Of a DNA stretch of 64,000 bases, positions 4,253 to 59,665 are shown piece by piece; the stretch's first letter is position 1, and each line of letters opens with the position of its first letter. The notes under the pieces are model-generated. The model made no database searches. It was not told the origin of the DNA and worked only from the letters and a program-made list of their open reading frames with translations. The DNA is taken from NCBI GenBank assembly GCA_045602215.1, contig JAZSBE010000060.1, forward strand, positions 536 through 64,535, given 5' to 3'. Source of the stretch: Eubacteriales bacterium (GTDB lineage: Bacteria > Bacillota > Clostridia > Oscillospirales > CAG-272). Both the position numbers and the translations under genes were made by a program.

Positions 4253-5545
4253 ATGAAATTATTACTCAAAAACGCGACGTTGCTCCCCGAGTACGGCTTT
4301 GCAGATCGGCGCGTAAACGTATTGATTAAGGATAAGAAAATCTACGGAATTACAGAAGTTCTGCCGGATGATTTCGTGGCGGACGAGGTGGTAGATTGCG
4401 GCGGTAATCTGCTGATTCCCGCGTTTTACAACGCGCACTGTCACGCGGCAATGACCCTTTTCCGAGGATACGGCGAGGATCTCCCGCTCCAGCGGTGGCT
4501 TGAAGAGAAGATCTTTCCCGCAGAGGAGCATCTGACCTTCCGCAGTGTCTATCACGGAACGATGCTGGCGATCGCGGAGATGCTGAAATCGGGTATCGCG
4601 TCCTTCTCGGATATGTATATGTTTGAGGACGCGGTCGCGGAGGCGGTTCTTGCCAGCGGCATCAAGGCGAATCTCTCCAGATCTTTGGTCTCCTTCGATC
4701 CGAACGTGGATATGAGCCAGGAAAACCGTATGGTCGAGGCGATCCGCCTGGCAGAGTGGTATCACGGCATCGATGACGGCAGGATCCTCGTGGATTTCTC
4801 CCTTCACGCCGAATACACCAACATCCCCAAGGCCTGCGAATACGTCGCGGAGATTGCAAAGAGATTCAAAACGGGTATGCAGATCCACCTTTCCGAAACC
4901 GAGAAGGAGCACATGGACTGCATCGGCAGATGGGGTAAGACTCCTACGGAGTTTTTCCGAGACACGGGTGTTTTGGACGTCCCAACAACGGCGGCGCACG
5001 GCGTTTGGCTTCAGGATAGCGATCTTCCCATTCTCGCAGAAAAGAAGGTTACCATCGCGCACAACCCCGTGAGCAATCTCAAGCTCGGAAGCGGCGTGAT
5101 GCCTCTGAAAAAGCTGATGAATGCAGGGATCAACGTTGCGCTCGGAACGGATGGCGTGGCATCAAACAACCGCTTGGATGTTCTCCGTGAGCTTCAGACG
5201 GCGGCGATCCTGCACAAGGGTGTGAACCGAGATCCTGCCTGCCTCACGGCAAGAGAGGTGTTCCCCTTGGCGACGCGGAACGGCGCGATAGCGCAGAGAA
5301 GAGGGGATTGCGGAGAGATCAAGGTCGGCAATCGCGCGGATCTGGTGCTCCTCGACCGCAACACGCTACATAACGTCCCGTGCTTTGACGATTATGCAAT
5401 GATCGCCTACAGCGCAGAGCGAAGCGACGTACGAATGACCATGGTCGATGGACGCATACTTTACCGAAACGGTGAGTATACTTCCATTGATGAGGAACGG
5501 ATGCGATTTGAATGCCGCGAGACGTTTGCTCATTACTTTGAGTAA
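4253..5545 (+). CDS. mtaD: Amidohydrolase, 5-methylthioadenosine/S-adenosylhomocysteine deaminase type
   Basis: 430 aa. Metal-binding HxH (FYNAHCHAAMTLFRGYGEDLPLQRWL), later HLSET and GTDG motifs typical of MtaD/TrzA-family deaminases. Confidence 0.85.
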   Translation: MKLLLKNATLLPEYGFADRRVNVLIKDKKIYGITEVLPDDFVADEVVDCGGNLLIPAFYNAHCHAAMTLFRGYGEDLPLQRWLEEKIFPAEEHLTFRSVYHGTMLAIAEMLKSGIASFSDMYMFEDAVAEAVLASGIKANLSRSLVSFDPNVDMSQENRMVEAIRLAEWYHGIDDGRILVDFSLHAEYTNIPKACEYVAEIAKRFKTGMQIHLSETEKEHMDCIGRWGKTPTEFFRDTGVLDVPTTAAHGVWLQDSDLPILAEKKVTIAHNPVSNLKLGSGVMPLKKLMNAGINVALGTDGVASNNRLDVLRELQTAAILHKGVNRDPACLTAREVFPLATRNGAIAQRRGDCGEIKVGNRADLVLLDRNTLHNVPCFDDYAMIAYSAERSDVRMTMVDGRILYRNGEYTSIDEERMRFECRETFAHYFE

Positions 5546-8911: not shown

Positions 8912-9559
8912 ATGACGGTATCGCAGACGCAGCTTGCCCTTCTGTATCTCTGTTCGATTTTCATGGGGGCGTCCTTGGGATTGCTCTACGACGGCTTTCG
9001 GATCGCGAGAATTTTTCTGGGAGAGCATTTTTCAAAGGTTGCAAACCGATTTGAGGCGGTCGATCTCCCCCTGATCGGCGCGCCCAAAAAACCAAAAAGC
9101 AGAAATAAGCTGAGAGCGATTTTCCTTTTCGTCAGCGATTTTTTGTTCTGCATCATCGCATCTGTGGCTTTGATCCTGCTTTTTTATCAGATGAATCACG
9201 GAAAGATTCGCTTTATGACCTTTGTTTTTGCGGGGGCAGGGTTTTATCTGTATCGCTTTACCATTGGAAAACTGGTCATGGCATGCTCGGAGACCGTTGC
9301 GTTCGTTCTGCAGACGGCTGTGAGGTACGGTTGCTTTTTCGTCTGTTTTCCATTCAAATGGTTTGCGCGAAAGGTGTATCACCTCATAAAAGCGATCGTC
9401 AGAAAGCAAACGGAGAAACGGATGAAGCGGATTCGGGTTCGCTATACCGCGTATCAGCTGGCGCATCCCGAGTCGATCATAGGCGCGGCTTTGCCAAAGG
9501 AAGAAAAAAAGAAAGGAGTACGGTACCGTGGAAGAAAAAAAGAGGCAATTCAGCCTTAG
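8912..9559 (+). CDS. yabQ: Spore cortex biosynthesis protein YabQ-like membrane protein
   Basis: 215 aa with several TM segments and a basic C-terminal tail, immediately after yabP. Confidence 0.7.
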   Translation: MTVSQTQLALLYLCSIFMGASLGLLYDGFRIARIFLGEHFSKVANRFEAVDLPLIGAPKKPKSRNKLRAIFLFVSDFLFCIIASVALILLFYQMNHGKIRFMTFVFAGAGFYLYRFTIGKLVMACSETVAFVLQTAVRYGCFFVCFPFKWFARKVYHLIKAIVRKQTEKRMKRIRVRYTAYQLAHPESIIGAALPKEEKKKGVRYRGRKKEAIQP

Positions 9560-9821
9560 TCTGTTGGTCAGAATTTTTCTGGCTGTCATTGTGGTCGTCT
9601 CCCTTGCCGTATTCGTGAGCAGCGTGATGCGCTATAATGAGCTTCGCGCAGAGCAAGAGGAGCTGGAAGCGACCAAGGCAGAGCTGATCGAGGAAAAAGA
9701 GGAGCTCGTGGAGCTTTCCGATTCAAAGGGAACAGAGAAATTTGTCGTAAAGATGGCAAGAAGGTTCTGGAACTTGTTTTTCCCCGATGAGGAAGTATAC
9801 TACAACGATAGAAATTCGTAA
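9528..9821 (+). CDS. divIC: Septum formation initiator (DivIC/FtsB family)
   Basis: 97 aa. One N-terminal TM helix, then a coiled coil (ELRAEQEELEATKAELIEEKEELVEL). GTG start 10 nt after AAAGGAG. Overlaps the yabQ 3' end. Confidence 0.75.
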   Translation: MEEKKRQFSLSLLVRIFLAVIVVVSLAVFVSSVMRYNELRAEQEELEATKAELIEEKEELVELSDSKGTEKFVVKMARRFWNLFFPDEEVYYNDRNS

Positions 9822-9836
9822 AGAAAGATTGTGACC

Positions 9837-10316
9837 ATGGCAGAGAAGAAAAAAGAAGCACAAAAGATCGTAGCGCAGAACAAAAAGGCGTGGCACGATT
9901 ATTTTGTAGAGGAAAAGTATGAGGCGGGCGTGGCGCTTTGCGGCACCGAGATCAAGAGCATCCGTCGGGGAGCAGTGAACCTCAAGGATTCCTACTGTTC
10001 CTTTGACAAGGGCGAGATGTTTGCGACCGGCGTGCATATCAGTCCTTATGAGCAGGGAAACCGCTTCAATCACGAGCCTCTCAGAGACAAAAAGCTCTTG
10101 ATGCACAAGAGAGAGATCATGAAGCTTCAGGGACTCGTGCAGCAAAAGGGATATACGCTGATCCCCTTGTCGCTTTATTTTTCGGGAAGCTTTGTGAAAA
10201 TGGAGATTGGACTTTGCAGAGGTAAAAAGCTGTACGATAAGCGAGACGCCGATGCAGAGAGAGCGGCAAACCGAACTATGGATCGGCATATGAAGGACAG
10301 CCGATACGAGGAATAA
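9837..10316 (+). CDS. smpB: SsrA-binding protein SmpB
   Basis: KIVAQNKKAWHDYFVEEKYEAGVALCGTEIKSIR.G..NLKDSY is canonical SmpB. An in-frame GTG at 9831 is an alternative start. Confidence 0.93.
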   Translation: MAEKKKEAQKIVAQNKKAWHDYFVEEKYEAGVALCGTEIKSIRRGAVNLKDSYCSFDKGEMFATGVHISPYEQGNRFNHEPLRDKKLLMHKREIMKLQGLVQQKGYTLIPLSLYFSGSFVKMEIGLCRGKKLYDKRDADAERAANRTMDRHMKDSRYEE

Positions 10317-10456: not shown

Positions 10457-10848
10457 GGGGGTGCAATGGTTTCGACGGGGATTCTGAGGCAAGATAAGCG
10501 TGGCGAGCCGGGTAATCTCGAAAACTGCCTAAACTTAAAAAATAAACGACAACAATTACGTTGCTATGGCTGCCTAAGTTTTGCGCTTCGGCGTAAAACT
10601 TGGCGGTGCCGTGACCTGCGGGTCACCCGTTCCTCCGCGGAGGACTGCGACTGCGGACTGAACGTCATCTGAGCAGTGAACTTGCATCGGGGTTTCGCCC
10701 TTGAACCGATCAAGCACAAAAGGGCTACCGAGCGGTGGAGTGTGTCTGTTCACGCCTCCAATCGGGAAATCAAAATAACAGACTGTCCACGAAGAAAGTT
10801 TTGTCAAGGGGTTTTCGGACATGGGTTCGATTCCCATCATCTCCACCA
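10457..10848 (+). ncRNA. ssrA: tmRNA (transfer-messenger RNA)
   Basis: - 5' GGGGGTGCAATGGTTTCGACGGGG resembles the E. coli GGGGCUGAUUCUGGAUUCGACGGG.
- 5' GGGGGTG pairs with 3' CATCTCC before ACCA, including the G3:U pair.
- T-arm ATGGG-TTCGATT-CCCAT.
- The tag frame ends ..AAC GAC AAC AAT TAC GTT GCT ATG GCT GCC TAA (..NDNNYVAMAA*, stop at 10575-10577).
- It sits directly after smpB. Confidence 0.9.
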
Positions 10849-10895
10849 AAAGAGAATGGCTGGCACATCGTGCCAGCCATTCTCTTTTGGTGGAG
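10841..10895 (+). terminator. ssrA terminator, a 26-bp perfect inverted repeat that includes the tmRNA 3' end
   Basis: CTCCACCAAAAGAGAATGGCTGGCAC (10841-10866), loop ATC, GTGCCAGCCATTCTCTTTTGGTGGAG (10870-10895). A TTTT run lies inside the right arm. Confidence 0.7.
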
Positions 10896-10897
10896 CT

Positions 10898-11014
10898 AAT
10901 TCGCTACGCGAATTGAACCCCGCAAATTCGCAGAATTTGCCGAGGAACGCGCGTGATGAAGGGGGCTTAAGGTTTGATAAAATTAAGGCGCGCGTTTGGG
11001 TTCAGATTCCCATC
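10898..11014 (+). repeat. Structured repeat unit U1 (H0 + H1 + S2 + pseudo ssrA T-arm)
   Basis: - H0: aattcgc-tac-gcgaatt, 10898-10914.
- H1: gcaaattc-gca-gaatttgc, 10922-10940.
- S2: acgcgcg 10947-53 paired with cgcgcgt 10989-95, 35-nt loop.
- 5 nt, then tgggttcagattcccatc at 10997-11014. The genuine ssrA T-arm is tgggttcgattcccatc at 10822-10838. Confidence 0.65.
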
Positions 11015-11135
11015 CTGCGCAGATCGAACCCCGCGAATTTCAAAGCAACGCTTTGAAATTACGCCAGTGCGTGCGCTTAAATAGAAGCGAAAAAATTTGC
11101 AAAACAGGAGCGCACGCGTGGTTTCAGATTCCCCA
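11015..11135 (+). repeat. Structured repeat unit U2 (H1 + S2 + degenerate pseudo T-arm)
   Basis: - H1: aatttcaaagc-aac-gctttgaaatt, 11036-11060.
- S2: gcgtgcgc 11069-76 paired with gcgcacgc 11110-17, 33-nt loop.
- 5 nt, then ttcagattcccca at 11123-11135.
- It shares the gaaccccgcRaatt block with U1. Confidence 0.6.
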
Positions 11136-11136
11136 T

Positions 11137-11868
11137 TTATTGCTTTTTCATCTGTCTGAGGAACAGGAGCACCGCGATCGCAAGGGCGACGACGGCATAT
11201 CCGAGTACCCAGAAGAGGTGCGGGAATATTTCTCCGAAATTTCCTGAGAGCACTGCGCGCTCCAGCTCTACCGCGTGTACGAAGGGAAGGGCGTAGGCGA
11301 TCTTCTTGAACGTGCCGCCCACCAGCTCCAGATCAAACCACGTGCCCGACAGCCACGCCGAGAGGTTTGTCAGCAGCGCGCCGCAGATTCCTCCGACCTG
11401 CTTGTCATTTAAGATGCTTCCAAAGAGCAATCCAAGCGCGATGAAGAGAACCGAGATGGGAATGATAAAGAGAACTGCCAGCAGAACGTTGACCGTGATC
11501 TCAAGCCCGAGAATGAATGCCACCAGATAGCAAATGATACTCTGCGCCACCGCAAAGGGAACGATCGGCAGAGTGTAGCCAAGGATAAAATCGATCGGGC
11601 GGAGAGGCGTGGTGTAGAGTCTTTGAAGCAGCGAGCTGCCTCTGTCCTTTGAGATCAGGAATGCGGAAAAGAGAGTCATAAAGGAGAGCCCGAAGACCGT
11701 GATGCCGGGAGTCAGGTGCGCGATCTCAAAGAGGGGAACCGGCACGTTTGCCTGAATGGCGCTCAAAAGGAAAATCAAAACGAGAGGGAATCCAAGACCA
11801 AAGCATACCGTTAAGGGATCGCGAAGGATTTCCTTGGTGTTTCTGTTTGCAAACGTAAGCATTTTCAT
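11137..11868 (-). CDS. ABC-2 type transporter permease
   Basis: 243 aa with about 6 TM segments. Its start overlaps the stop of the upstream ABC ATPase gene. Confidence 0.85.
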   Translation of the reverse strand: MKMLTFANRNTKEILRDPLTVCFGLGFPLVLIFLLSAIQANVPVPLFEIAHLTPGITVFGLSFMTLFSAFLISKDRGSSLLQRLYTTPLRPIDFILGYTLPIVPFAVAQSIICYLVAFILGLEITVNVLLAVLFIIPISVLFIALGLLFGSILNDKQVGGICGALLTNLSAWLSGTWFDLELVGGTFKKIAYALPFVHAVELERAVLSGNFGEIFPHLFWVLGYAVVALAIAVLLFLRQMKKQ

Positions 11869-12593
11869 TGTGCTCCCCCCTTTACGATGCGGACGAACGC
11901 CTGTTCAAAGCTGTCCGTTTCTGCCAATCGCTTGATCTCTTCTGCAGTGTCGCATACGAGAAGCCTTCCGTCCTTCATGATGGCGATGCGGTCGGAGAGC
12001 GCCTCGGCCTCCTCCATATAATGCGTTGTTAAAATGATGGTAACCTTACCCTTCAGGGCGCGGATCATATCCCAAAGATCGCTCCGCGCGATGACGTCAA
12101 GTCCAAGCGTTGGCTCGTCAAGAAAGAGAATTTTCGGCTCGCTGATCAGCGCCATGGCGATGCTGAGCCTGCGTTGCCAGCCGCCCGACAGCTTTCCTGC
12201 CTTTCTGTCAAGCACGCTCTCCAAACCGAGCAGGGCCGTAAGCTCCTCGATTTTTTTGTTCCGTTTGTCCTTTGTAAAGCCGTGAACGCCGCACATCAGC
12301 TCAAGATTTTCTCGAGCAGAAAGCCCGGGAGCTACCGCAGTCTCCTGCGGAGATACGGCGATAAGAGCCTTGACGTCAGTGGTATCCTTGCAGATGCTTT
12401 TGCCAAGCAGAAGGGCGTCTCCGTTCGTTGGCGCGGTCAGGCAAGAAAGCATTTTGATGGTTGTGGTCTTTCCTGCGCCGTTGACCCCGAGAAGGGAAAA
12501 GAGCTCTCCCTCCTTGATTGACAGAGACAAATTGTCAACGGCGATCACGTCCTTGTAGTGCTTGGTCAGGGATTTGATTTCGATTGCGTTCAT
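11865..12593 (-). CDS. ABC transporter ATP-binding protein
   Basis: Walker A GVNGAGKTT, signature LSGGWQRRL, Walker B ILFLDEPT. Confidence 0.9.
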   Translation of the reverse strand: MNAIEIKSLTKHYKDVIAVDNLSLSIKEGELFSLLGVNGAGKTTTIKMLSCLTAPTNGDALLLGKSICKDTTDVKALIAVSPQETAVAPGLSARENLELMCGVHGFTKDKRNKKIEELTALLGLESVLDRKAGKLSGGWQRRLSIAMALISEPKILFLDEPTLGLDVIARSDLWDMIRALKGKVTIILTTHYMEEAEALSDRIAIMKDGRLLVCDTAEEIKRLAETDSFEQAFVRIVKGGAQ

Positions 12594-13162
12594 TGTTTTT
12601 CCTCCTTGGATAGATGCCTTGCGCGGATTCCTTGATAAACGTCGGTCAGCATATTGCTGATCAGATCCGAGTCAAGGGCTAAAAAGGACGTGGCAAGCAT
12701 GGTTCCGATGCCGTGCACACAGGTCCACGTTTCCAGATGCATAAGCATTGCCGTCTCTCTTGTGACTCCGTTTGCCTGCATGATCAGTTTGATTGATTCC
12801 TCAAAATCAGAGGACAACAGGGAAGTGTCCTCCTCGCTTCTGTCACGCATGAACAAAAGCTTGAACAGCTCCTTTTCATCCTTGGCAAAACGCACGTACG
12901 CCATTCCGAATGCCTTGTATTGCGGATATTTTCCGCTTTCCACCTCGCTTTTGATGAAGCTGAGGTAGTGATCGTAAGCAGCCAGAATGACCGTCTGTTG
13001 CAATTCCTCCATACCCTCAAAATTGGAAAAGATGGGTTGCGTGGAGCAATTCAGTTCTGCTGCGATCGTTCTGGCGTTGATGGCTTCCGTGCCGCTTTTT
13101 CGCACTAAATTTAATGTGGTATTAATAATGTCCTCTTTTGTGATTTTTACCTTTGGCGGCAT
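12590..13162 (-). CDS. TetR/AcrR-family transcriptional regulator
   Basis: 190 aa with an N-terminal TetR HTH (II.TTLNLVRKSG.EAINARTIAAELNCSTQPIFSNF). First gene of the TetR-ABC-permease operon. Confidence 0.9.
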   Translation of the reverse strand: MPPKVKITKEDIINTTLNLVRKSGTEAINARTIAAELNCSTQPIFSNFEGMEELQQTVILAAYDHYLSFIKSEVESGKYPQYKAFGMAYVRFAKDEKELFKLLFMRDRSEEDTSLLSSDFEESIKLIMQANGVTRETAMLMHLETWTCVHGIGTMLATSFLALDSDLISNMLTDVYQGIRARHLSKEEKQ

Positions 13163-13236
13163 ATTTAACCTCCATAATATATCAAGCGTTATATAACCAA
13201 TGATATCTTAACACAGAAAAATGAGTTTGTCAATAG

Positions 13237-13273
13237 AAAAATGCAGAAACATAAAAAATGTTTCTGCATTTTC
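13237..13273. terminator. Bidirectional hairpin terminator (3' of ruvB)
   Basis: atgcagaaacat (13241-52), loop aaaaa, atgtttctgcat (13258-69), flanked by an A-run and a T-run. It begins 4 nt after the ruvB stop. Confidence 0.6.
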
Positions 13274-13276
13274 TTT

Positions 13277-14341
13277 TTATTCTTCCCCAAACATCTTTAT
13301 CTGCTCGGAGGGGGTAGGCTTTGCCGCGTGGAAGGGGATTCCCAGATGCTCGTAGGCAAGACGGGTGACGCAACGGCCTCTGGGGGTGCGGCTGAGATAA
13401 CCAATCTGCATCAGATAGGGCTCGTAAACGTCCTCCAGCGTGATGGCTTCCTCGCCAACGGTCGCGGCAAGTGTTTCAAGACCGACGGGACCACCGTCGT
13501 AGAATTTGATGATGGTCTCCAGCATCCGTCTATCGGTGTTGTCCAGCCCTAACTGGTCGATCTCCAGCTTGGTCAGGGCAAAGTTTGCAATGTCGGAGTC
13601 GATTTTTCCGTCTCCCATAACCTGTGCGAAGTCACGCACGCGCTTGAGCAGACGGTTTGCAATACGGGGCGTACCGCGCGAACGGCTCGCGATCTCCATC
13701 GCACCGTCGTCCGAGATCTCCATACCAAGGATCCCTGCGCTGCGGCGCACGATCTCTGCCAGTTCCTCGGGCGTGTAAAGCTCCAGCTTCATCAGCACGC
13801 CAAAGCGATCGCGCAGAGGGGTGGTCATTTGTCCTGCACGCGTGGTCGCGCCGATCAAGGTGAATTTGGGCAGATCAATTCGAATACTGCGGGCAGACGG
13901 GCCTTTTCCGATGATGATATCCAGCGCGTAATCCTCCATTGCGGGGTAGAGGATCTCCTCCACCGAGCGGGAAAGACGGTGGATCTCGTCAATGAAGAGC
14001 ACGTCTCCCTCATTGAGGTTGGTCAGGATCGCCGCAAGATCTCCCTGCTTTTCAATGGCAGGGCCGGAGGTGATACGGATGTTCACGCCCATTTCATTGG
14101 CGATGATGTTGGAAAGGGTGGTCTTCCCAAGACCGGGAGGGCCGTAAAGCAGAACGTGATCCAAAGGATCGTTTCTACCCTTGGCGGCGTCTATATAAAC
14201 CTTCAGAATGTCCTTGACCTTCTCCTGTCCGATGTAATCCTCCAGACGTTTGGGCCGAAGCGTGACCTCGCTGTCGGCATCCTCTGCCGTGTAGGAGGTG
14301 TTCAGGATTCGGTTCTCAAAATCAAATTCATTGCTATCCAT
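13277..14341 (-). CDS. ruvB: Holliday junction branch migration helicase RuvB
   Basis: [16 protein letters not shown]...[13 protein letters not shown]...LFIDEIHRL is canonical RuvB. Confidence 0.97.
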
Positions 14342-14367
14342 GGGGCATCAAACGCTCCTTTCTTTTA

Positions 14368-14994
14368 TCAGAATTTCATGAGCTTTTTCAGAGATACGCG
14401 AATGATCTCCTCAAGCTCGAGGGATGCAGTGTCCACGTCCTTCAGGACACTCATTGCCTCGGCGCGGGAATATCCCAAAACGACCAGTGCGTCGACCGCT
14501 TCGCTGAGCTTTCCGCGACCTTGCGGAGCGGCAACCGATGCGGTGGAATCGTCGATCTGGGGCAGTGCGCCTCCCGTTTCCTTCATCATCTTGTCCTTGA
14601 GCTCGAGAATGACACGAGCAGCCGTCTTCGGACCGATTCCGTTCGCTTTTGCAATGGTTTTGCGGTCATCGGTGCATACGGCAAGGGCAAATTTCTCGGG
14701 GGTGAGCAGGGAAAGGATGGAGATTGCCGCCTTGGGGCCGACGCCCGAAACCGAGATCAGCATCTTAAAGGAGGAAAGCTCCGCCTGCGTTGCAAATCCA
14801 AACAGCTCGATATCGTCCTCACGAACGGCAAGATAGGTGAAGAGCTTGACTGTGGGAGGATTGTCGTAGGAGCGCGGGGGCATTGCGTCATAGGTGGTTC
14901 CGCTGACGGTAAGCTTGTAGCCAATCCCTCCGACGTCAAGGACGGCGAGGTTGGATTCAAGATGCATCAATTTTCCGCTGATATAGTAAAACAT
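14368..14994 (-). CDS. ruvA: Holliday junction DNA-binding protein RuvA
   Basis: MFYYISGKL......LAVLDVGGIGYKL.VS and the HhH region LISVSGVGPK.A..IL. Confidence 0.93.
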   Translation of the reverse strand: MFYYISGKLMHLESNLAVLDVGGIGYKLTVSGTTYDAMPPRSYDNPPTVKLFTYLAVREDDIELFGFATQAELSSFKMLISVSGVGPKAAISILSLLTPEKFALAVCTDDRKTIAKANGIGPKTAARVILELKDKMMKETGGALPQIDDSTASVAAPQGRGKLSEAVDALVVLGYSRAEAMSVLKDVDTASLELEEIIRVSLKKLMKF

Positions 14995-15000
14995 ACGAGA

Positions 15001-17964
15001 TTATGCCTTCTTTCTTCGAAGTGATTTTTTCTTCTTTTGATCTCCCTCCGGTACGGAAACGACCGCGCGAAGGAAGGGCTTTTTCTTCATGATGGGCTCC
15101 AGTGTCACCAGTGCAAGATAAGTTGTCAAGAAGACGCCCGATATGATGCCGCCAACAAGGAGAACGTTGGGGCTGTACACGAGACTGACGTCGTGTGTTT
15201 CGCCCGCTTCTCCTTCAATGTAGAATGCGACCACAGATCCAAGCGCCTTGACAGGCTCAACCTCTTTGCCGTCTACCGTGATGCGCCAACCCTGATCGTA
15301 GGCGAGGGTGGTCATGACCAGCTCCTTCTCGCGTGATGCGGTGAAGGTTCCCGTGAAGGAATCCTCGGTGTAATCGGTCACGATCAGCTGATCCTCAGAA
15401 AGTCGAGCCATGACGTCCTCAAATACGTCTCTGTCAATGTAGTACAGGCTGGGCTCATCATAGAAATAGTAGAGCCCGTTTCCTTTTGTTTTAGTGCGGA
15501 GAGACAGTTTTGTGCCCTCCTGCTGTACGCCGAGAGAGATGATTCGGAGGGTCTCGTGTCCGCCAAAGCTTCCGTAGCTCTTGCCTTCCCGCGCACTCAT
15601 ATCATAAAGTGCCAAAGAGACCTCTCTGGGGTAGTTGGTGGGCATATAATAGTAGAGCTCGGCATTGGTGGGCATATCGAAGGAGTAGGTGAGGGTGCGG
15701 GTGATTCCGTCTCCGTCCTCAAAGGTATAGCAAATGTGCCCCTCGGCATAATAAGGATCATTCAGTCCTTCCGACGTAACGGAAACGTCCTGCACGGGAA
15801 CAAAGACCTGCACGGTCTCGGTTTCTCCCAACATCGCGGTCACGATCGCGTTCAGACGCTCGAAGGGAGAATGATAATCATCTGCGTATTCTGCGCGGCG
15901 AACCGTTTCGTCGATGCCGAGCAGTTGATTGAGCCATGCTTTTCCTTTTGAAATGGCATCGCCGATCTCATCTGCGTTCGGTTCGGTGTTTTCAGGCTTG
16001 GTAACGGTCGAATCTTCCTCTGTCTTCGGGAGGTATCCGAGGTTAAAGTTCAGCAAATCGTCGCTCACACCGTAGGCGATCGAAAGGGCATACGGATTGA
16101 GATATGCTTGATATTTGTCGGTGGATGCGTAGGGATCGTAATATTGATCCAACTCGTTAAAATACTGATCGGCAATGACGTATTTGATACCCAAAAGGGA
16201 GTCGCTCACGGGTGTTCCGCCAAGGTATTTTGACCAGTGTGACTCGGATGCGTATCCCATTTTTTGAAGGAACTTTACGGTTTCCTGATTGAGCGTGGAG
16301 GTCGAGCCGGACAGTCCGCGCATCTTGAGTGCCATATTGTCGTTGATCTTTCGGAACATGGTCTTTTCCATGCGGTAAAAGGAATCGTCGCTCTCCTGAA
16401 CCAGATCAACAATGGGGCGCACGTCTTTAAGATAGTTGTTGTAGGTGCTGTATTTGGTGTAGACCACGTCATTGTGGAGGGAATTCATATTGCAAAGACC
16501 GTTGACAAGCATTTCCGCGCAGACAACGACCGTCAGAAGAATACAAACTGCCGTTTTGCTCTTATATGCCTGGATCAAACCGAGGACACAGAGATACAAG
16601 AGGATCGTTAGGATCGAGAACCAGATGCAGGTCAGCTTGTTCGGCTGAACAAAGGCACCGTCATTGTAGCTCTGCAAATACAGACAGACCAAGCCGAGAA
16701 TTGCGCCAGCTCCAATCACAACGCGCAGACGGTAGGATTCAAATGCGATGAGCGCACGGCAGGCAAGCGTGCAAAGATAGAAGCAGAGCATGAAGCTGTA
16801 GCGGTAGTTGAGCCAGTTGGGCTGTTGGAATCCGTGCCAAAGAAGGTCAAGCACCGTGACAGAAAAGCTTGCAAGGAAAATTGCGATGAAGATTGCCGAG
16901 CAGATCTTCTGGCGAATGGAGAATTTTCTGGATATAAAATATGCAGGCAGTAAAAGCAGAGTCAGAACACCGCAATACACGAAGGGGTGTCCCTCGGGAC
17001 GAACGGTGTCGAATGAGCTGGGGAGGAATTTGTAGAGAAGATCCCGAATGCCGAGCGTAAAGCCCCAGTCCCAGCTTGGATCGGAAAAGGTGCTCTTTCC
17101 GAAATTCAGAGAGTAGTAGGCGCACAGGAGAATGACGGCGGAAATTCCGACGGCAAGTACGGAGTAGAACGCCATACGGAGGAGAGACTTCAAAAAGTGA
17201 AACCGCTCGCCGAATGGGTTGTTCTCCTGATCCTTTCCGTGACCGATATAGTACAGGAAAAAGTAGAAGAAGCAGTAGATACATACCATGTATCCGATAT
17301 AGAAGTTGCTGAAGAGTGTGATGGCAAGGAAAAGGGTATAGAGCTTGAATTTTCCGTGCTTGATCAGAGATTCAATTCCAAGCGTAATCAGGGGCAGCCA
17401 CATCATGGCGTCGATCCACATGGTGTTGTGCTGTTGGACGATTCCGTAGCTGCAGAGCGCGTAGCAAATCGAGAAAATGACGATTGCGTAGGGGCGGCGG
17501 TCGGTAGACGTTTTGTGCATATAATAGCCAAAGGTCAATCCGCAGAGCGCCGTTTTGATCAGAAAGAGAACCAAAAGTCCCTCAAGCATCCGCGCGGTCG
17601 GGAACAGGCATACAATGAAAGAAAGGGGACTGGAGAGATAGTAGGCGTACATGCCCATAAATTCTCCGCCCATGGCGCGGGCAAAGGAGTAGAGCAGGCT
17701 GGCGTCTCCTCTTGCAAAATTGCGAAGCGCCTCAAAAAACCATACGTACTGTCCGTTGAGGTCCAAGACCAGCACACTTCCGTCGCCAAACGGATGGATT
17801 CCGCGCAGAAAATACATCAGATAGCAGAGCAGTGCGGGAATCAACGCGCAAAGCGCAAGGTAGCCGTATTCTTCGAAAAAGCCTTTCTTTTGAGACCTTG
17901 AATATCCAAAATTTCCGAGTAACCCTTTTGGAGGGTTGAAAAGAGAATTGGAGCTTGACATCAA
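15001..17964 (-). CDS. YfhO-family polytopic membrane protein (glycosyltransferase-C-like)
   Basis: 987 aa. The N-terminal half has many TM helices and the YfhO-like start (HPFGDGSVLVLDLNGQYVWFFEAL..SLLYSF...GGEFMGMYAYYLSSP). A large extracytoplasmic domain and a terminal TM helix follow. Confidence 0.8.
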   Translation of the reverse strand: MMSSSNSLFNPPKGLLGNFGYSRSQKKGFFEEYGYLALCALIPALLCYLMYFLRGIHPFGDGSVLVLDLNGQYVWFFEALRNFARGDASLLYSFARAMGGEFMGMYAYYLSSPLSFIVCLFPTARMLEGLLVLFLIKTALCGLTFGYYMHKTSTDRRPYAIVIFSICYALCSYGIVQQHNTMWIDAMMWLPLITLGIESLIKHGKFKLYTLFLAITLFSNFYIGYMVCIYCFFYFFLYYIGHGKDQENNPFGERFHFLKSLLRMAFYSVLAVGISAVILLCAYYSLNFGKSTFSDPSWDWGFTLGIRDLLYKFLPSSFDTVRPEGHPFVYCGVLTLLLLPAYFISRKFSIRQKICSAIFIAIFLASFSVTVLDLLWHGFQQPNWLNYRYSFMLCFYLCTLACRALIAFESYRLRVVIGAGAILGLVCLYLQSYNDGAFVQPNKLTCIWFSILTILLYLCVLGLIQAYKSKTAVCILLTVVVCAEMLVNGLCNMNSLHNDVVYTKYSTYNNYLKDVRPIVDLVQESDDSFYRMEKTMFRKINDNMALKMRGLSGSTSTLNQETVKFLQKMGYASESHWSKYLGGTPVSDSLLGIKYVIADQYFNELDQYYDPYASTDKYQAYLNPYALSIAYGVSDDLLNFNLGYLPKTEEDSTVTKPENTEPNADEIGDAISKGKAWLNQLLGIDETVRRAEYADDYHSPFERLNAIVTAMLGETETVQVFVPVQDVSVTSEGLNDPYYAEGHICYTFEDGDGITRTLTYSFDMPTNAELYYYMPTNYPREVSLALYDMSAREGKSYGSFGGHETLRIISLGVQQEGTKLSLRTKTKGNGLYYFYDEPSLYYIDRDVFEDVMARLSEDQLIVTDYTEDSFTGTFTASREKELVMTTLAYDQGWRITVDGKEVEPVKALGSVVAFYIEGEAGETHDVSLVYSPNVLLVGGIISGVFLTTYLALVTLEPIMKKKPFLRAVVSVPEGDQKKKKSLRRKKA

Positions 17965-17974
17965 ATAAATCCTT

Positions 17975-18178
17975 TCAGTTCTGTGTGGTGGGGGAGAGCA
18001 TCTGCTTGATCGCTTTCTCCAGCTTGATTCGTTCCATGGTCATGTCTCTGCCGCAGGATTCGCAAATGATACGAACCTCCGATCCCACACGGACGATCCG
18101 AAAAACGTCTCCACCGCAGGGGTGCTTTTTCTTGAGCTTGATCCGATCGTTTGGTTGAAGCTTTATAATGGACGGCAT
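17975..18178 (-). CDS. DUF951-family small protein (YyzM-like)
   Basis: 67 aa. LKKKHPCGGDVFRIVRVGSEVRIICESCGRDMTM matches my memory of the DUF951 pattern (HPCG..W.I.R.GADI...C..C). Confidence 0.7.
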   Translation of the reverse strand: MPSIIKLQPNDRIKLKKKHPCGGDVFRIVRVGSEVRIICESCGRDMTMERIKLEKAIKQMLSPTTQN

Positions 18179-18313
18179 ATGTGTTTTCCCCTCCTTTTGG
18201 CGGTGTGAGCTACGTTTTTGTAATAATTATTTATATTATAACATAAAAAAGTCAGACTGTAAACTAAAAATGCTTTTTTTACTGCTTTTTTTCGAAAAAA
18301 AACGAAGAATGAT

Positions 18314-18342
18314 TTGACTTTCACAAGGAAAGGTGATATAAT
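18314..18342 (+). promoter_or_regulatory. Candidate sigma-A promoter of ruvC
   Basis: TTGACT (18314-19), 17-nt spacer, TATAAT (18337-42). Confidence 0.55.
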
Positions 18343-18376
18343 ATAGGATGGATTGCTATAGGAATGGATGGGATTT

Positions 18377-18883
18377 ATGCGAATACTTGGAATTGACCCA
18401 GGTCTTGCCATCGTAGGATGGGGGATCGTGGATTACGAAAAATCAAAATTTCATACCGTTGCCTACGGCGCGCTTCGCACGCAGGCAGGGCTTTGCACCG
18501 AGGAGCGGCTTGAGCTGATCTACAAAGGGATGTGCGAGCTGCTGGAAAAATATCGCCCCGATGCGATCTCGATTGAGGAATTATTCTTCAACACCAACAT
18601 CACCACCGGTATCCGCGTGGCGGAGGCAAGGGGGGTACTGTTGCTTGCGGCAAGGCAATTTGGCGCGGAGATTCAGGAATACACCCCCTTGCAGGTCAAG
18701 CAGGCGGTGGTTGGATATGGTCGCGCCGAGAAGAAGCAGGTCATGTCGATGGTGACGATGCTGCTCGGGCTGAAGGAAACACCCAAGCCCGACGATACGG
18801 CAGACGCGCTCGCGCTTGCGATTTGTCACGCGCACAGCGGCGGCTCTCGCTTGGCGAATTATTACAACAAGAGCACCATTTAG
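18377..18883 (+). CDS. ruvC: Crossover junction endodeoxyribonuclease RuvC
   Basis: MRILGIDPGLAIVGWGIVD is the canonical RuvC N-terminus. The ORF track starts 9 nt earlier, at 18368. Confidence 0.93.
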   Translation: MRILGIDPGLAIVGWGIVDYEKSKFHTVAYGALRTQAGLCTEERLELIYKGMCELLEKYRPDAISIEELFFNTNITTGIRVAEARGVLLLAARQFGAEIQEYTPLQVKQAVVGYGRAEKKQVMSMVTMLLGLKETPKPDDTADALALAICHAHSGGSRLANYYNKSTI

Positions 18884-34774: not shown

Positions 34775-35779
34775 TTATTTCGTCTTCTTACGTGAGGAGA
34801 GGGGATTGTGAGACATGGCGTCCTCGATGCTCCGATTCGATACGTGTGTGTAAATTTGCGTGGTGTTGAGCTGCTCGTGACCGAGAATCTCCTTGAGCAC
34901 CCGAACGTCAACATTTCCGCTTTGATACATCAAGGTCGCCGCGGTGTGACGAAGCTTGTGAACCGAGTAGTGCTTGGCTTCAAGACCTGCAAGCTTGAGG
35001 TATTTGTAGATCATCCATTGGACGGTTTTTACGCTCATGCGTTGCTCCAGGCGGCTGAGAAAGACGCCCTTGTCCTTGATAGAGGCATACTGCGCGCTTT
35101 TTCGAATGGTGAGGTAGGCGCCAAGCGCATCTTGACAGGCTTGGTTCAAATATACGATACGCTCCTTGCTTCCTTTACCCGTGACGCGAATGGAGCGGAG
35201 CTGAGGGTCGATGTCTCCCAGGTTGATCCCGACCAGCTCGGAAACACGCATCCCGCAGTTGAGGAAAAGGGTGACGATGGCATAGTCTCTTACGCGGAAA
35301 GGGGATTCGCGGTCGTTTTCAATCGCGTCGAGAAGCGCCTCGGATTCCTCAAGCGTGAGATATTTGGGGAGTGATTTTTTTGGTTTGGGGGAATCCATAT
35401 CCGCCGTGGGATTGTACTCCAGATAGTGGCGCTTGGAGACCAGATACTTGTAAAGAGAGCGGAGAGAGGACAGTTTGCGCGAGCGCGCCGCCCATTGATT
35501 GCCTCTTTGCTGGTTTGCATAAAACAGGAAATCGTAAATTTCCTCGGCACGAATTTTCCCGAGACGCTCCAGCCCGATCGAGCTGACGTCGATTTGATTA
35601 AATTCCTCCGACGCGGGATCAATGCCGTATTCCTTGGAGAGAAGATAGCGGAAAAAGGTGCGAAGATCCAACAGGTATTCCTGAACGGTTTTCTGCGAGC
35701 ACCCCTGCAGGGAAAGCTTGTAGGAGGCATATTCCTGAATCAGCGGAGAAAATTCATTTGGAGAAATCAGTTGTGCCAT
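34775..35779 (-). CDS. xerC: Tyrosine site-specific recombinase, XerC/XerD family
   Basis: 334 aa. N-terminal SAM-like core-binding domain. Catalytic HKLRHTAAT (HxxR) and LGHEQLNTTQIYTHV (H...Y). Confidence 0.85.
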   Translation of the reverse strand: MAQLISPNEFSPLIQEYASYKLSLQGCSQKTVQEYLLDLRTFFRYLLSKEYGIDPASEEFNQIDVSSIGLERLGKIRAEEIYDFLFYANQQRGNQWAARSRKLSSLRSLYKYLVSKRHYLEYNPTADMDSPKPKKSLPKYLTLEESEALLDAIENDRESPFRVRDYAIVTLFLNCGMRVSELVGINLGDIDPQLRSIRVTGKGSKERIVYLNQACQDALGAYLTIRKSAQYASIKDKGVFLSRLEQRMSVKTVQWMIYKYLKLAGLEAKHYSVHKLRHTAATLMYQSGNVDVRVLKEILGHEQLNTTQIYTHVSNRSIEDAMSHNPLSSRKKTK

Positions 35780-57987: not shown

Positions 57988-58872
57988 ATGAATATCGGTG
58001 AAAAAATTCGTTCTTTGCGAGTTGCAAAGCTCATGACGCAGTCAGAGCTTGCCGGTAATCAGATCACCCGAAATATGCTTAGTTGCATTGAAAACGGGAG
58101 CGCGCAACCATCACTTTCTACCATTTTATACATCGCAAAGGCGTTGAACGTGCCGGTCGGTTTTCTCCTGGCAGAGGAAGGCGATGAGCTTGTTTATCAG
58201 AAAATGAGCGGACTTCCGAACATCAAAAGGGCATATCGCGCAGGAGATTGGACGGGATGTCGTAGCCTTTGCCTTTCGTCCTGCCCGGATCCTGACGATG
58301 AGATTCGGCTGATTCTTGCCAACTGTGATCTTGAAATTGCAAAATCCCTTTTTTGGGAAGGGAAGATCCGTCAAGCCTGCCGCTTTTTTGATGAGGCAAT
58401 GCTCTATGCGGCGGATACCATCTATCCTGCAGAGCATATTCATGCCGAGGCAGAGGTCTACTTCCGCTATATGGAGCGGATCTCGCCTATGCTGTATTCC
58501 GACGTGCTGGACGATGGGGCGAAAAGGTCTGTTGTTTGTGTCAACGCCTTTTTTCAGTATATGATTGCATTGGAGGCGCTGGAAAACGGAGATGAGATTC
58601 CCGCAAAGCATTTTTCCGAGGTTTATTCGGAGGAATCCTTCTTTTGCTCGCATCTACACGTAAAATGCTTGATGAATCAAAGCAAATTCGGAGAGGCAAA
58701 AGATGCTCTCATGACCCTTTTAGAGGAAGAGATCTTGCTCAACGAGATCAGTCTTTTGGCGATCTTGAGCGATCTAGAGATCTGTTGCAGAGAGATCGAG
58801 GATTTCAAGGGCGCATACCGTTATTCCAACGAGCGTGTACAGCTTTTGGAAAAGCTGTTGAGAGAAAATTAA
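57988..58872 (+). CDS. XRE-family HTH regulator with a ~230-aa helical-repeat (TPR-like) C-terminal domain
   Basis: HTH IGEKIRSLRVAKLMTQSELAG..ITRNMLSCIENG...PSL.T..YIAKALNVPVGFLL. The remainder is predicted all-helical repeats. Confidence 0.8.
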   Translation: MNIGEKIRSLRVAKLMTQSELAGNQITRNMLSCIENGSAQPSLSTILYIAKALNVPVGFLLAEEGDELVYQKMSGLPNIKRAYRAGDWTGCRSLCLSSCPDPDDEIRLILANCDLEIAKSLFWEGKIRQACRFFDEAMLYAADTIYPAEHIHAEAEVYFRYMERISPMLYSDVLDDGAKRSVVCVNAFFQYMIALEALENGDEIPAKHFSEVYSEESFFCSHLHVKCLMNQSKFGEAKDALMTLLEEEILLNEISLLAILSDLEICCREIEDFKGAYRYSNERVQLLEKLLREN

Positions 58873-58902
58873 AAAAGAAGATGCGTTTGCATCTTCTTTT
58901 TT
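58871..58902. terminator. Bidirectional terminator
   Basis: aaaaaagaagatgc / gcatcttctttttt hairpin between convergent genes. Confidence 0.6.
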
Positions 58903-58904
58903 CG

Positions 58905-59099
58905 TTATATTTGCTTTTGTACGCTCTTATATTCGTCATAAAAACGATAGTATGGGCAAGTTCTCGTGCTGCCGGATAAAAAGCGAACCATTTCGTCTTC
59001 GTCCAGATTCACACTGCACTCGTAGTCCTCGTACTCTTCGTTATAATCATAGAATACGCAGGTCTCACACGTTCCTGCTTGCTTTTTTTCGATTGTCAT
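58905..59099 (-). CDS. Small acidic 4-Cys protein, conserved hypothetical
   Basis: 64 aa. CETC...x13...C...x19...C, rich in D, E and Y. Strong RBS AAGGAGG 5 nt upstream of the ATG. Confidence 0.6.
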   Translation of the reverse strand: MTIEKKQAGTCETCVFYDYNEEYEDYECSVNLDEDEMVRFLSGSTRTCPYYRFYDEYKSVQKQI

Positions 59100-59203
59100 C
59101 GCGCACCTCCTTGAGGGGATATCTCATTATACACGATTCTGACCCAAAAGTAAAGAAGATGTCGAAATTTTTGACAACTTTTTTGTTTTTTCTGAAAAAA
59201 CTC

Positions 59204-59232
59204 TTGCAATTTCAAAAAATGTATGCTATAAT
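59204..59232 (+). promoter_or_regulatory. Candidate sigma-A promoter of tRNA-Val
   Basis: TTGCAA (59204-09), 17-nt spacer, TATAAT (59227-32), 13 nt before the tRNA 5' end. Confidence 0.55.
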
Positions 59233-59245
59233 ATCCCCGTTGCAT

Positions 59246-59302
<57 letters not shown>

Positions 59303-59322
<20 letters not shown>

Positions 59323-59404
59323 AAAAAAGAATCCCAACACGCTGTGTTGGGATTCTTTTTTTGCTGAAAATCATCGAAACGATGGTCTCCGCAAATCTCG
59401 CAAA
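59303..59404 (+). repeat. Direct repeat copy 1 (tRNA-Val T-loop-to-CCA + terminator + 42 nt)
   Basis: 102 nt. It recurs at 59479-59581. It includes the tRNA terminator hairpin gaatcccaacac-gct-gtgttgggattc. Confidence 0.9.
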
Positions 59405-59478
59405 GCGAGATTATGCCAAGGCGCGCGATGAGATGAAACGTAGGTTAAGCACAGAATCAAAACGCGCGCATAAGTTCA
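59405..59478 (+). repeat. 74-nt junction segment, homologous to ssrA-downstream units U1/U2
   Basis: It completes hairpin H1 (aatctcgc-aaa-gcgagatt, 59394-59412). S2 is gcgcgcg 59421-27 paired with cgcgcgc 59463-69, with a 35-nt loop. Then 5 nt, then ttca. Confidence 0.65.
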
Positions 59479-59581
59479 GAGTCTCCCTGTTTCCACCAAA
59501 AAAAGAATCCCAACACAGCGTGTTGGGATTCTTTTTTTTGCTGAAAATCATCGAAACGATGGTCTCCGCAAATCTCGCAAA
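59479..59581 (+). repeat. Direct repeat copy 2 (pseudo 3' end of tRNA-Val + terminator copy + 42 nt)
   Basis: 103 nt, identical to copy 1 except that the hairpin loop is agc instead of gct and there is one extra T in the T-run. Confidence 0.9.
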
Positions 59582-59595
59582 ACCGTAGTAATGTG

Positions 59596-59624
59596 TTGAT
59601 TTTTTCCTTTGTGTGTGATATAAT
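59596..59624 (+). promoter_or_regulatory. Candidate sigma-A promoter of the nitroreductase gene
   Basis: TTGATT (59596-601), 17-nt spacer, TATAAT (59619-24). Confidence 0.5.
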
Positions 59625-59665
59625 AACCATATAAATGACAAAAAGCCGCAAAAAGGAGAGTAAAA

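Follow-up and report, generated by a model that had tools for sequence, protein, structure and literature searches.

The tRNA-Val(CAC) gene in the 64-kb stretch of Eubacteriales DNA analysed here (the window) is followed by several short modules in tandem, members of a T-loop-linked family that has not been described before. They fold into a three-way junction and end in a copy of the T-arm of the gene upstream. The module is conserved in structure and not merely in sequence, and in the sequence searched it was located only directly downstream of tRNA-Val and transfer-messenger RNA (tmRNA) genes. The predicted P1 helix that closes the junction, the leader and the tail track the T-arm of the upstream gene, and comparison of close relatives reveals variation in the number of units, their terminators and their orientation. 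We hold this descriptive account, i.e. folded modules that are linked to T-loops, conserved in structure, matched to the resident T-arm and variable in number, with high confidence. The function that we favour is a more tentative matter and in our estimate falls just short of an even chance: the units may be cargo-less, non-autonomous recombination units that fold as single-stranded DNA (ssDNA) into a mimic of the T-loop target and are processed by an unlinked enzyme.

A previous sequence-only reading of the window had described a 102-nt block at 59303-59404 that recurs at 59479-59581 as 103 nt, the two copies differing only in a flipped 3-nt loop and one extra T. A repeat search confirmed these statements. 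The segments 59303-59362 and 59479-59538 are 95% identical, with mismatches confined to the 3-nt loop of the terminator hairpin (GCT vs AGC), and 59356-59404 is 100% identical to 59533-59581, shifted by one position in register because of the extra T in the T-run. Even with three mismatches allowed, the 64 kb contain exactly two copies of the 20-mer GAGTCTCCCTGTTTCCACCA (0.01 occurrences expected). As had also been stated, the second copy is preceded by gttcA; the T-arm homology (AGTTC-A) runs 5 nt further to the left across this 1-nt insertion in the pseudo T-loop, and the boundary of the repeat indeed lies inside the T-loop, between C56 and G57.

The 74 nt between the two copies, previously taken for unrelated sequence, turned out to belong to a conserved structured module that is found at this place in at least 13 genomes. 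The segment (59405-59478) constitutes the 3' three-quarters of a module of about 115 nt, which additionally comprises the 42 nt before it. No plausible gene lies between the repeats: the open reading frames (ORFs) of at least 40 amino acids that overlap 59323-59478 are one that spans the repeats and antisense frames overlapping the nitroreductase gene. A coding function of the 75-amino-acid ORF at 59361-59588 was rejected since it spans both repeat copies, and is also contradicted by the P3 loop of the module, the length of which varies between relatives and not by multiples of three.

Architecture and conserved fold of the module

One unit at tRNA-Val measures about 172-176 nt and consists of a tRNA copy from G57 to CCA, an intrinsic-terminator hairpin, a short leader and a three-way junction of about 95 nt. 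The tRNA copy present in each unit leaves the tRNA-Val gene intact. Within the module, the terminator is followed by the leader (TTGCTGAAAA...), the 5' strand of P1 (GAGCTC or GAACTC), a single C, the P2 hairpin, a linker, P3 and the 3' strand of P1 (GAGTTC). Behind the latter stand one or two extra nucleotides (A, T or CT) and then GAGTCTCCC..., which corresponds to the tRNA from G57 on. P2 has a defined base, GC(A/G)AAT...ATT(T/C)GC, and an unconstrained interior, and P3 is formed by AACGCGCG and CGCGCGTT around a loop of about 33 nt. Internal units at tRNA-Val carry the full 20-mer followed by a new terminator, terminal units there retain 9-14 nt of it, and across terminal and single-copy modules the tail measures just 7-14 nt.

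Several lines of evidence support the three-way junction. RNAalifold applied to the modules returned P1 closing P2 and P3, and folding with DNA parameters reproduced this structure. Folded alone, 15 of 17 cores form a P1 that closes two arms, the exceptions being those of the window and of L029 (related loci are designated by L and a number), and in 14 of these 15 the two arms are P2 and P3. In an alignment of 19 core sequences (A3; 18 pairs, 342 cells), 94.7% of the cells are standard pairs and half of the pairs (9 of 18) show changes on both sides (34 cells). The covariation score of this alignment was reached by none of 500 column shuffles and, as a control, sliding the partners by 1-3 columns reduced pairing to 13-52%. 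P2 is a perfect hairpin of 6-15 bp in all copies, formed by very different sequences.

In 12 of 20 modules the closing helix extends beyond P1, as the 5 nt located 5' of P1 (GACTC; GAATC at tmRNA) pair with the five nucleotides at the start of the tail. For this pairing exactly the inserted nucleotides must be skipped, i.e. one, or two in L009 and L030 with their CT insert. At tRNA-Val the extended strands read GACTC-GAGCTC (or GAACTC) on the 5' side and GAGTTC-N-GAGTC on the 3' side, and DNA-parameter folds display a bulged 11-bp helix. Since the 5 nt before P1 pair with the tail past the insert, the closing helix reproduces T-arm positions 51-61 in both strands, as 11 bp with a single bulge. 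The bulged 1-2 nt sit exactly at the C56/G57 junction, and the T-arm of the resident gene is repeated at the end of every module, with one or two nucleotides added after TTC.

The terminators that separate the modules are strong structures themselves. As DNA, the two hairpins of the window form strong folds, T1 at -21.5 kcal/mol (z = -7.9) and T1' at -19.6 kcal/mol (z = -6.1), and weaker outer pairs of T1 join 59314-59317 with 59366-59369 and pull the acceptor 3' strand into the stem. In this tRNA-Val terminator (59314-59370), the acceptor sequence TTTC (59314-59317) pairs weakly with the GAAA of TTGCTGAAAA, so that the sequence after the terminator is partly the complement of the tRNA end. 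The CA of the tRNA-Val CCA begins the main terminator stem.

A genome scan with the 20-mer yielded 34 loci, all but one from metagenome-assembled genomes of gut or rumen Clostridia/Oscillospiraceae. Two or three copies of the 20-mer at a spacing of 168-176 nt are present in 5 of the 34, and a further six hold the module with a shorter tail. Modules of the Val type were found in L001, L009, L010, L012, L015, L016, L017, L021, L028, L029 and L030 and also in L180; at least 13 gut or rumen Clostridia genomes have it behind tRNA-Val and the terminator of that gene, in one to three tandem copies. The core model R2, run with filters off, detected only three modules in the 64 kb, and in 326 kb of related loci only copies linked to a tRNA or tmRNA gene (t(m)RNA). 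The genes that flank the arrays differ in each species and include those for surface proteins, AraC, GH4, FeoB, LysR and others.

Two loci carry incomplete arrangements. At L009 (1-310) a complete Val-type module with the full 20-mer tail has no tRNA upstream, and its terminator is truncated at the 5' end. An unrelated minus-strand gene starts 140 nt from the contig end. This arrangement may mark an island's far end or may have arisen by rearrangement. At L028 (6369-6470) a shortened second unit without terminator, P1 5' strand and P2 keeps a P3-like stem and GAGTTC-T-GAGTCTCCCTGTTTCCCACCA.

Modules behind tmRNA and variation of the arrays

A second pair of modules in the window lies at tmRNA. 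The first model, R1, matched 10890-11015, directly after the tmRNA gene and its terminator, and two tandem modules are located within 10893-11136 (Table 1). The module tm-1 scores 40 bits with R1 and 64.8 bits with R2, tm-2 scores 74.2 bits with R2, and both were folded. The arms of the tmRNA terminator take in the 3' end of the gene, CTCCACCA pairing with TGGTGGAG. Both modules keep the P2 and P3 motifs of the family (CCGCAAAT.., AACGCGCG..), whereas P1 reads GAACCC/GGGTTC at tmRNA versus GAGCTC/GAGTTC at tRNA-Val. Likewise, the tail is A-GATTCCC at tmRNA versus GAGTCTC at tRNA-Val and corresponds to the tmRNA T-arm with a 1-nt insertion after TTC.

Relatives of the tmRNA locus were found via SmpB. 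L182 and L184 each contain one tmRNA-linked module, that of L182 with the tail GATTCCCATCATC. In L184 the tmRNA has the T-loop variant GACTCCC, which is matched by the tail GACTCC, and P3 is fully compensated from AACGCGCG/CGCGCGTT to AATTTGCGCC/GGCGCAAATT. The same locus harbours an IS3-family element (8961-10300; rve transposase, 375 amino acids) directly after the tmRNA CCA, between gene and module. In L174 a strain-specific island (11012-18554) begins right after the tmRNA CCA, and the contig ends before its distal end. It encodes KwaA/KwaB (Kiwa defence), DUF6809, a peptidase_S8/DUF1611 protein and an ABC/AAA_21 ATPase.

Two relatives of the window illustrate how arrays at tRNA-Val change. 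L180 is a strain about 94% identical to the window with an identical HydB protein, and L015 is a sister species with 90% identity over 7.3 kb. L180 has the order tRNA-T1-M-20mer-T2 followed by xre, i.e. one module and a second terminator of another type, and lacks the second 42-nt segment. L015 has the order tRNA-Ta-Ma-20mer-Tb-Mb-20mer-Tc and then a convergent xre gene. Two modules are present in L015 and a single one in L180; the window holds a full module and a truncated one. An empty site, predicted earlier as tRNA and terminator running into ...ctcgcaaa|accgtag, was not seen in these loci, the closest relatives being arranged as tRNA-terminator-module-20mer-terminator.

In the window, a segment of about 640 bp with DUF6472, tRNA and array (58881-59650) is inverted with respect to L180 (9895-10559) and L015 (1-720). 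Homology to L180 ends inside the xre terminator (58881/58905) and at 59539, beyond which the window contains the extra 42 nt and then 69 unmatched nt. The outer stem of the terminator between the xre and DUF6472 genes equals that of terminator T2 of L180, and its inner 12 nt differ. Because L180 has a different second terminator and no second 42 nt, the second block of the window (100 of 102 nt identical) is younger than the split from L180. Its origin coincides with, or postdates, an inversion. The near-identity of the copies, regarded as the sign of a recent event or of ongoing homogenisation in the sequence-only reading, reflects a recent event inside an old, dynamic array. A simple tandem duplication was ruled out: the blocks stand in the order B(102)-X(74)-B(103) with unrelated sequence behind them, neither outer flank resembles X, and with respect to L180 a conversion of terminator T2 and an inversion are additionally needed.

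Exchange is not limited to the window. Terminators inside one array may be unrelated in sequence, such as Ta and Tb of L015 or the two of L030, and terminators and modules assort as a mosaic, L180 combining a Tb-like terminator with a Ma-like module. A second loop flip distinguishes L030 (ATGTA) from L009 (TACAT). Palindromic terminators are simultaneously direct and inverted repeats of each other, and thus loop flips and inversions may have resulted from recombination or template switching between them. The xre, DUF6472 and tRNA-Val genes occur in four relative orders and orientations in the clade (window, L180/L015, L011 and L033).

Table 1. Features of the two module loci in the window.
Feature	Position	Strand	Evidence or remark
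Promoter-like site of tRNA-Val	59204-59232
tRNA-Val(CAC) gene	59246-59322	+	ARAGORN; Rfam RF00005, 63.9 bits
20-mer copy 1	59303-59322	+	tRNA-Val 3' end, G57 of T-loop to CCA
Terminator hairpin T1	59321-59363	+	20-bp stem, loop GCT at 59341-59343, T-run; repeat search and fold
Module leader (TTGCTGAAAA...)	59364-59383	+	contains small hairpin P0; alignment A1, DNA fold
P0 hairpin	59372-59384	+	CATCG-AAA-CGATG
Val-linked module core, three-way junction	59384-59477	+	R2 model 71.5 bits, E 5.6e-19, filters off; folds; covariation counts
P1 5' strand	59384-59389	+	GGTCTC, degenerate in window
P2 hairpin	59391-59416	+
P3	59421-59427 paired with 59463-59469	+
P1 3' strand	59472-59477	+	AAGTTC, copy of T-stem/T-loop
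Extra nucleotide A	59478	+	between TTC and GAG of copied T-loop; bulge in extended P1
20-mer copy 2	59479-59498	+	module tail, displaced/pseudo tRNA 3' end
Terminator hairpin T1'	59498-59538	+	T1 stem, loop AGC at 59517-59519, one T more in run
Second, truncated module	59539-59581	+	leader, P1 5' strand, 5' half of P2; stops in P2 loop; absent from L180
69 nt unmatched in L180 and all related loci compared	59582-59650	+	right junction of strain-specific inversion
Promoter-like site of nitroreductase gene	59596-59624		within 59582-59650
Bidirectional terminator between xre-family and DUF6472 genes	58871-58902		left junction of inversion
tmRNA (ssrA) gene	10457-10848	+	ARAGORN; Rfam RF00023, 161.8 bits; T-arm and 3' end GGGTTCGATTCCCATCATCTCCACCA
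tmRNA terminator hairpin	10836-10900	+	31-nt arms, 94% complementary (inverted-repeat search)
Module tm-1	10915-11014	+	core 10915-11003 (P1 GAACCC/GGGTTC), extra A 11004, tail GATTCCCATC 11005-11014
Module tm-2	11015-11136	+	leader 11015-11025, core 11026-11125 (P1 GAACCC/GGTTTC), extra A 11126, tail GATTCCCCAT 11127-11136

Possible functions of the modules

According to the interpretation that we favour, the units would be non-autonomous site-specific recombination units, i.e. att sites without cargo. The top strand as ssDNA would fold into a duplex mimic of the T-loop target, comparable to integron attC, the attP(+) hairpin of CTX and the ends of IS608, and a recombinase encoded elsewhere would insert, excise or amplify units at the T-loop. 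Between such events, replication slippage and recombination among the 20-mers and palindromic terminators might alter copy number, flip loops and invert segments. The strand that runs in the direction of the tRNA, namely the top strand, is favoured by G-T pairs, of which seven occur at a single P1 position. GC skew is positive throughout the window and the folding strand is thus the lagging-strand template here. A more far-reaching version, which we regard as possible but doubtful, sees in the modules a programmable, structure-guided recombination system of gut Clostridia: a cargo-less ssDNA three-way junction of about 100 nt whose closing helix, a bulged copy of the target, would be read by the unlinked enzyme. 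The target, the T-loop of either tRNA-Val or tmRNA, would then be set by base pairing within the element and could be reset by compensatory changes.

tRNA and tmRNA genes are classic landing sites of mobile DNA, and their known occupants are gene-carrying islands with an integrase of their own. The modules, in contrast, are units of 110-176 nt that are defined by their structure and carry no cargo. They hold a folded copy of their target and appear to have been retargeted between two genes by compensatory changes. If the modules are recombination substrates, recognition of a T-loop target can be encoded in the fold of an element's DNA, and the modules would provide a simple natural example of a resettable integration site. 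They would also explain t(m)RNA loci as synteny breakpoints and as sites of inversion and island gain in Oscillospiraceae. If the programmable version is true, the principle of integrons or IS608 would be applied to T-loops in a phylum in which integrons are not known.

A number of observations weigh against recombination units. No recombinase, transposase or integrase gene lies beside any array, and the proposed enzyme is therefore hypothetical. A tblastn search with the tyrosine recombinase of the window returned nothing in 368 kb of array loci (at low sensitivity), and a Pfam search of 10 ORFs flanking arrays revealed no recombinase. The defence island behind tmRNA in L174 contains neither a module nor an integrase within 8 kb. 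No module was found in IMG/VR viral contigs scanned with four different patterns, and BLAST gave no match of the 74-nt region to phages or of a high-scoring module to phages and plasmids. Neither a free copy nor one at a new kind of site was seen in the sequence searched. Structurally, the P1b extension is missing in 8 of 20 modules, P1 of the Val module in the window is degenerate (4 of 6 pairs), and reverse-complement folds are about equally stable, so that the argument for the top strand is carried by the G-T pairs only. Moreover, slippage alone can explain a change in copy number. Tyrosine recombinases normally require identical overlap regions, and the classical mechanism does not explain the 1-2-nt insert.

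The window does contain a tyrosine recombinase, an Xer-like protein of 334 amino acids (34775-35779, minus strand) with Phage_integrase and N-terminal SAM-like domains, encoded among housekeeping genes 24 kb from the array. It was the only recombinase among the 10 of about 57 window ORFs scanned with Pfam, and no link between it and the arrays could be shown.

The main rival to recombination units holds that the modules are structured non-coding RNAs produced by read-through of the tRNA or tmRNA terminator. P1 and a T-arm-like hairpin (GAG-TTCNGAGT-CTC) would be alternative structures, the RNA would act on maturation or turnover of the t(m)RNA or on T-arm-binding enzymes, and arrays would form by passive slippage. 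We consider this explanation unlikely and at the same time serious. Both the compensatory changes and the compactness of the three-way junction are features typical of RNAs, and the G-U pairs invariably fall on the strand that shares the orientation of the t(m)RNA gene. Each internal tRNA-Val unit ends with ...CCA and then a terminator, as a gene would, and the module has been retained in many species beside two stable-RNA genes. However, no promoter-like site was found between the t(m)RNA terminators and the modules, and a strong terminator (20-bp stem, T-run) is situated immediately upstream. As every Val or tmRNA array lies behind such a terminator, an independent RNA gene is disfavoured. 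In addition, tm-1 and tm-2 are not followed by a terminator, the tails of terminal copies are cut to 7-14 nt, and an RNA role leaves the coincidence of unit boundaries with recombination points unexplained.

Database comparisons bear on the same explanation. With Rfam 15, only the tRNA and tmRNA models reach the gathering score; other matches are far below it and fall mostly on terminator hairpins and flanks, so no RNA family matches the modules. A ribozyme or riboswitch was rejected, there being no Rfam match at E <= 1. The acceptor 3' strand has no evident conserved 5' partner and neither ARAGORN nor Rfam made a call, hence a tRNA-like molecule was rejected as well. A guide-RNA-like arrangement of scaffold, 20-nt guide and terminator is weakened by the short tails (7-14 nt) of terminal and single-copy modules and by the lack of a promoter. 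Should the modules nevertheless act as RNA, they would represent a conserved class of RNAs that is new and associated with the genes of stable RNAs. For direct testing of either reading, RNA or DNA, some 20 examples have been assembled together with an alignment and a covariance model.

The array could also be a passive by-product. In that case, an ancestral trailer with a T-arm-like segment present by chance would have been copied and removed by slippage, unequal crossing-over and gene conversion, and the module would lack a recombination function and serve at most as terminator or insulator. RecA-independent slippage and template switching classically act on long perfect palindromes and on direct repeats such as those of 20 nt found here at a distance of about 175 nt, and the loop flips, inversions and mosaic units observed (L180 with its Tb-like terminator and Ma-like module) agree with such processes. 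We nonetheless judge this explanation improbable, as it does not account for the conservation of structure with compensatory changes across at least 13 genomes, nor for a separate version at tmRNA, the P1, leader and tail of which all fit that second gene, nor for the constant 1-2-nt insert at C56/G57. Unrelated terminator sequences within one array likewise speak against it, and the order B-X-B with a unique X is not derivable from simple head-to-tail duplication.

The sequence-only reading had regarded the repeat boundary in the T-loop as a footprint of attL/attR formation by a tyrosine integrase, with an 'island' of only 74 nt. The repeats would then be attL and attR of a conventional element (a prophage, an integrative and conjugative element or an island) with its interior deleted and a 74-nt scar left. 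Part of this view stands: the direct repeat begins in the T-loop and extends through the tRNA's 3' end, and the site behaves as a recombination hot spot as judged by the number of units. The tmRNA 3' end is variable between strains and carries the Kiwa-containing island in L174, and the L009 module with its full tail lacks an upstream tRNA. As a whole, we find the deleted element very improbable, since random deletions would not give a scar of equal length and fold in many species and at two genes. There is no cargo, and neither an integrase pseudogene nor an integrase ORF occurs in or beside the arrays. An integrase-bearing element with the module was absent from every collection searched, and the large element expected to carry the 74-nt segment was found neither in IMG/VR contigs nor in phage and plasmid records, the rest of the 64 kb or the 326 kb of related loci.

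It is hardly credible that the second copy arose by misassembly, through the wrong joining of a repeat in what appears to be a metagenome-assembled genome, as the copies differ by a loop inversion and an extra T, arrays of 2-3 units are present in independent assemblies from different assemblers, and a repeat of 102 nt is shorter than a typical read pair. A miniature inverted-repeat transposable element with terminal inverted repeats was also rejected, there being neither a target-site duplication nor dispersed copies.

Relation to known systems and further observations

By mechanism, the modules are probably closest to attC sites and cassette arrays and to the folded attP of CTX, by location to tandem tRNA/tmRNA islands and cis-mobilizable elements (CIMEs). 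Like attC, the module would be a site defined by the fold of one DNA strand rather than by sequence, with covarying stems, a bulged (extrahelical) base near the crossover, a paired region that carries the core sequence of the double-stranded partner site and a neighbouring unit that supplies the part right of the crossover. Like cassettes, units are arranged head-to-tail in tandem and would grow at one fixed site. In contrast to integrons, there is no adjacent IntI gene or attI, the array starts at a tRNA gene, no cargo ORF is present, and the target is the T-loop of tRNA or tmRNA instead of attI. The RYYYAAC/GTTRRRY boxes are absent; in their place the modules have (T/A)A(A/T)AAC-GCGCG...CGCGC-GTT-TGAGTTC, which does not fit beyond AAC/GTT. 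The shape is a three-way junction, whereas attC is one long bulged hairpin. Integrons are not known in Clostridia, the hosts of the modules.

In the CTX-phage attP(+) and related integrative mobile elements exploiting Xer (IMEX), a single strand folds back so that two inverted segments recreate the chromosomal target as a duplex, with an irregularity at its centre. These elements have no recombinase gene of their own and, once integrated, are arrayed in tandem. All of this resembles the modules, but their target is not dif, the 172-nt unit lacks genes, and no link to the Xer-like recombinase of the window could be shown.

tRNA/tmRNA islands, their tandem arrays and CIMEs share with the modules a direct repeat of the 3' part of the gene starting in the T-loop, a gene that is restored by the insert, tandem units of which some lack recombination genes, and conserved sequence just upstream of the displaced repeats. 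When the features of a classical island were looked for, the direct repeat was present (the 20-mer from G57 to CCA, and its equivalent at tmRNA), only a terminator and a conserved module lay between the repeats, and relatives differed by whole units and not by cargo. The array architecture would fit att sites without recombination genes, as in CIMEs. The differences are that the modules comprise 110-176 nt without genes, that the flank is a covarying three-way junction with a complement of the target, that 1-2 extra nucleotides occupy the junction, and that no cognate integrase-bearing element was found in the collections searched.

The ends of IS200/IS605 insertion sequences and of their miniature derivatives, the palindrome-associated transposable elements, also act as folded single strands with subterminal hairpins. 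Their target is read by pairing with a short sequence 5' of the hairpin, and retargeting proceeds by compensatory change, as may apply to P1 at tRNA-Val and tmRNA. They insert 3' of a short specific sequence, which for the modules would be G(A/G)GTTC, and prefer the lagging-strand template. Unlike these elements, the modules show no dispersal in the 64 kb and 326 kb, where only t(m)RNA-linked copies were found despite the frequency of the hexamer GAGTTC. Their left end revealed no complementary guide, and no tnpA or tnpB is nearby. Because a defining feature that was looked for is missing in each comparison (IntI and R boxes, an integrase and cargo, dispersed copies), the modules are set apart from every one of the known systems. 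We tentatively place them, as to their putative function, among structure-defined, tRNA-targeting recombination sites.

Further searches returned little. Full-text literature searches yielded no description of such modules. A metagenome scan with GAGTTCWGAGTCTCCC gave, among the matches listed, chance matches from unrelated environments and no module. The nitroreductase, DUF6472, xre, ABC-2 permease and hydA proteins of the window have no identical protein on record.

Finally, tRNA-Val is followed by other structures in some genomes. A different conserved element of about 100 nt with several covarying hairpins is located after tRNA-Val in other species, directly at the CCA and without a terminator (L003 4222-4335; L034 222-341, minus strand; L033 5345-5475, minus strand; L007 735-853, minus strand; L014 53-110). 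It has no match in Rfam and in L003 is flanked by 22-nt direct repeats (TTCCACCAGCGGGCAGTGCCCG). In L020 (about 4782-4860) and L032 (about 2542-2620), neither of which contains modules, the sequence behind the tRNA-Val terminator repeats the 3' end of this tRNA in inverted orientation (GGTGGAAACAGGGAG(ACTC)), resulting in a long palindrome centred on the terminator loop.

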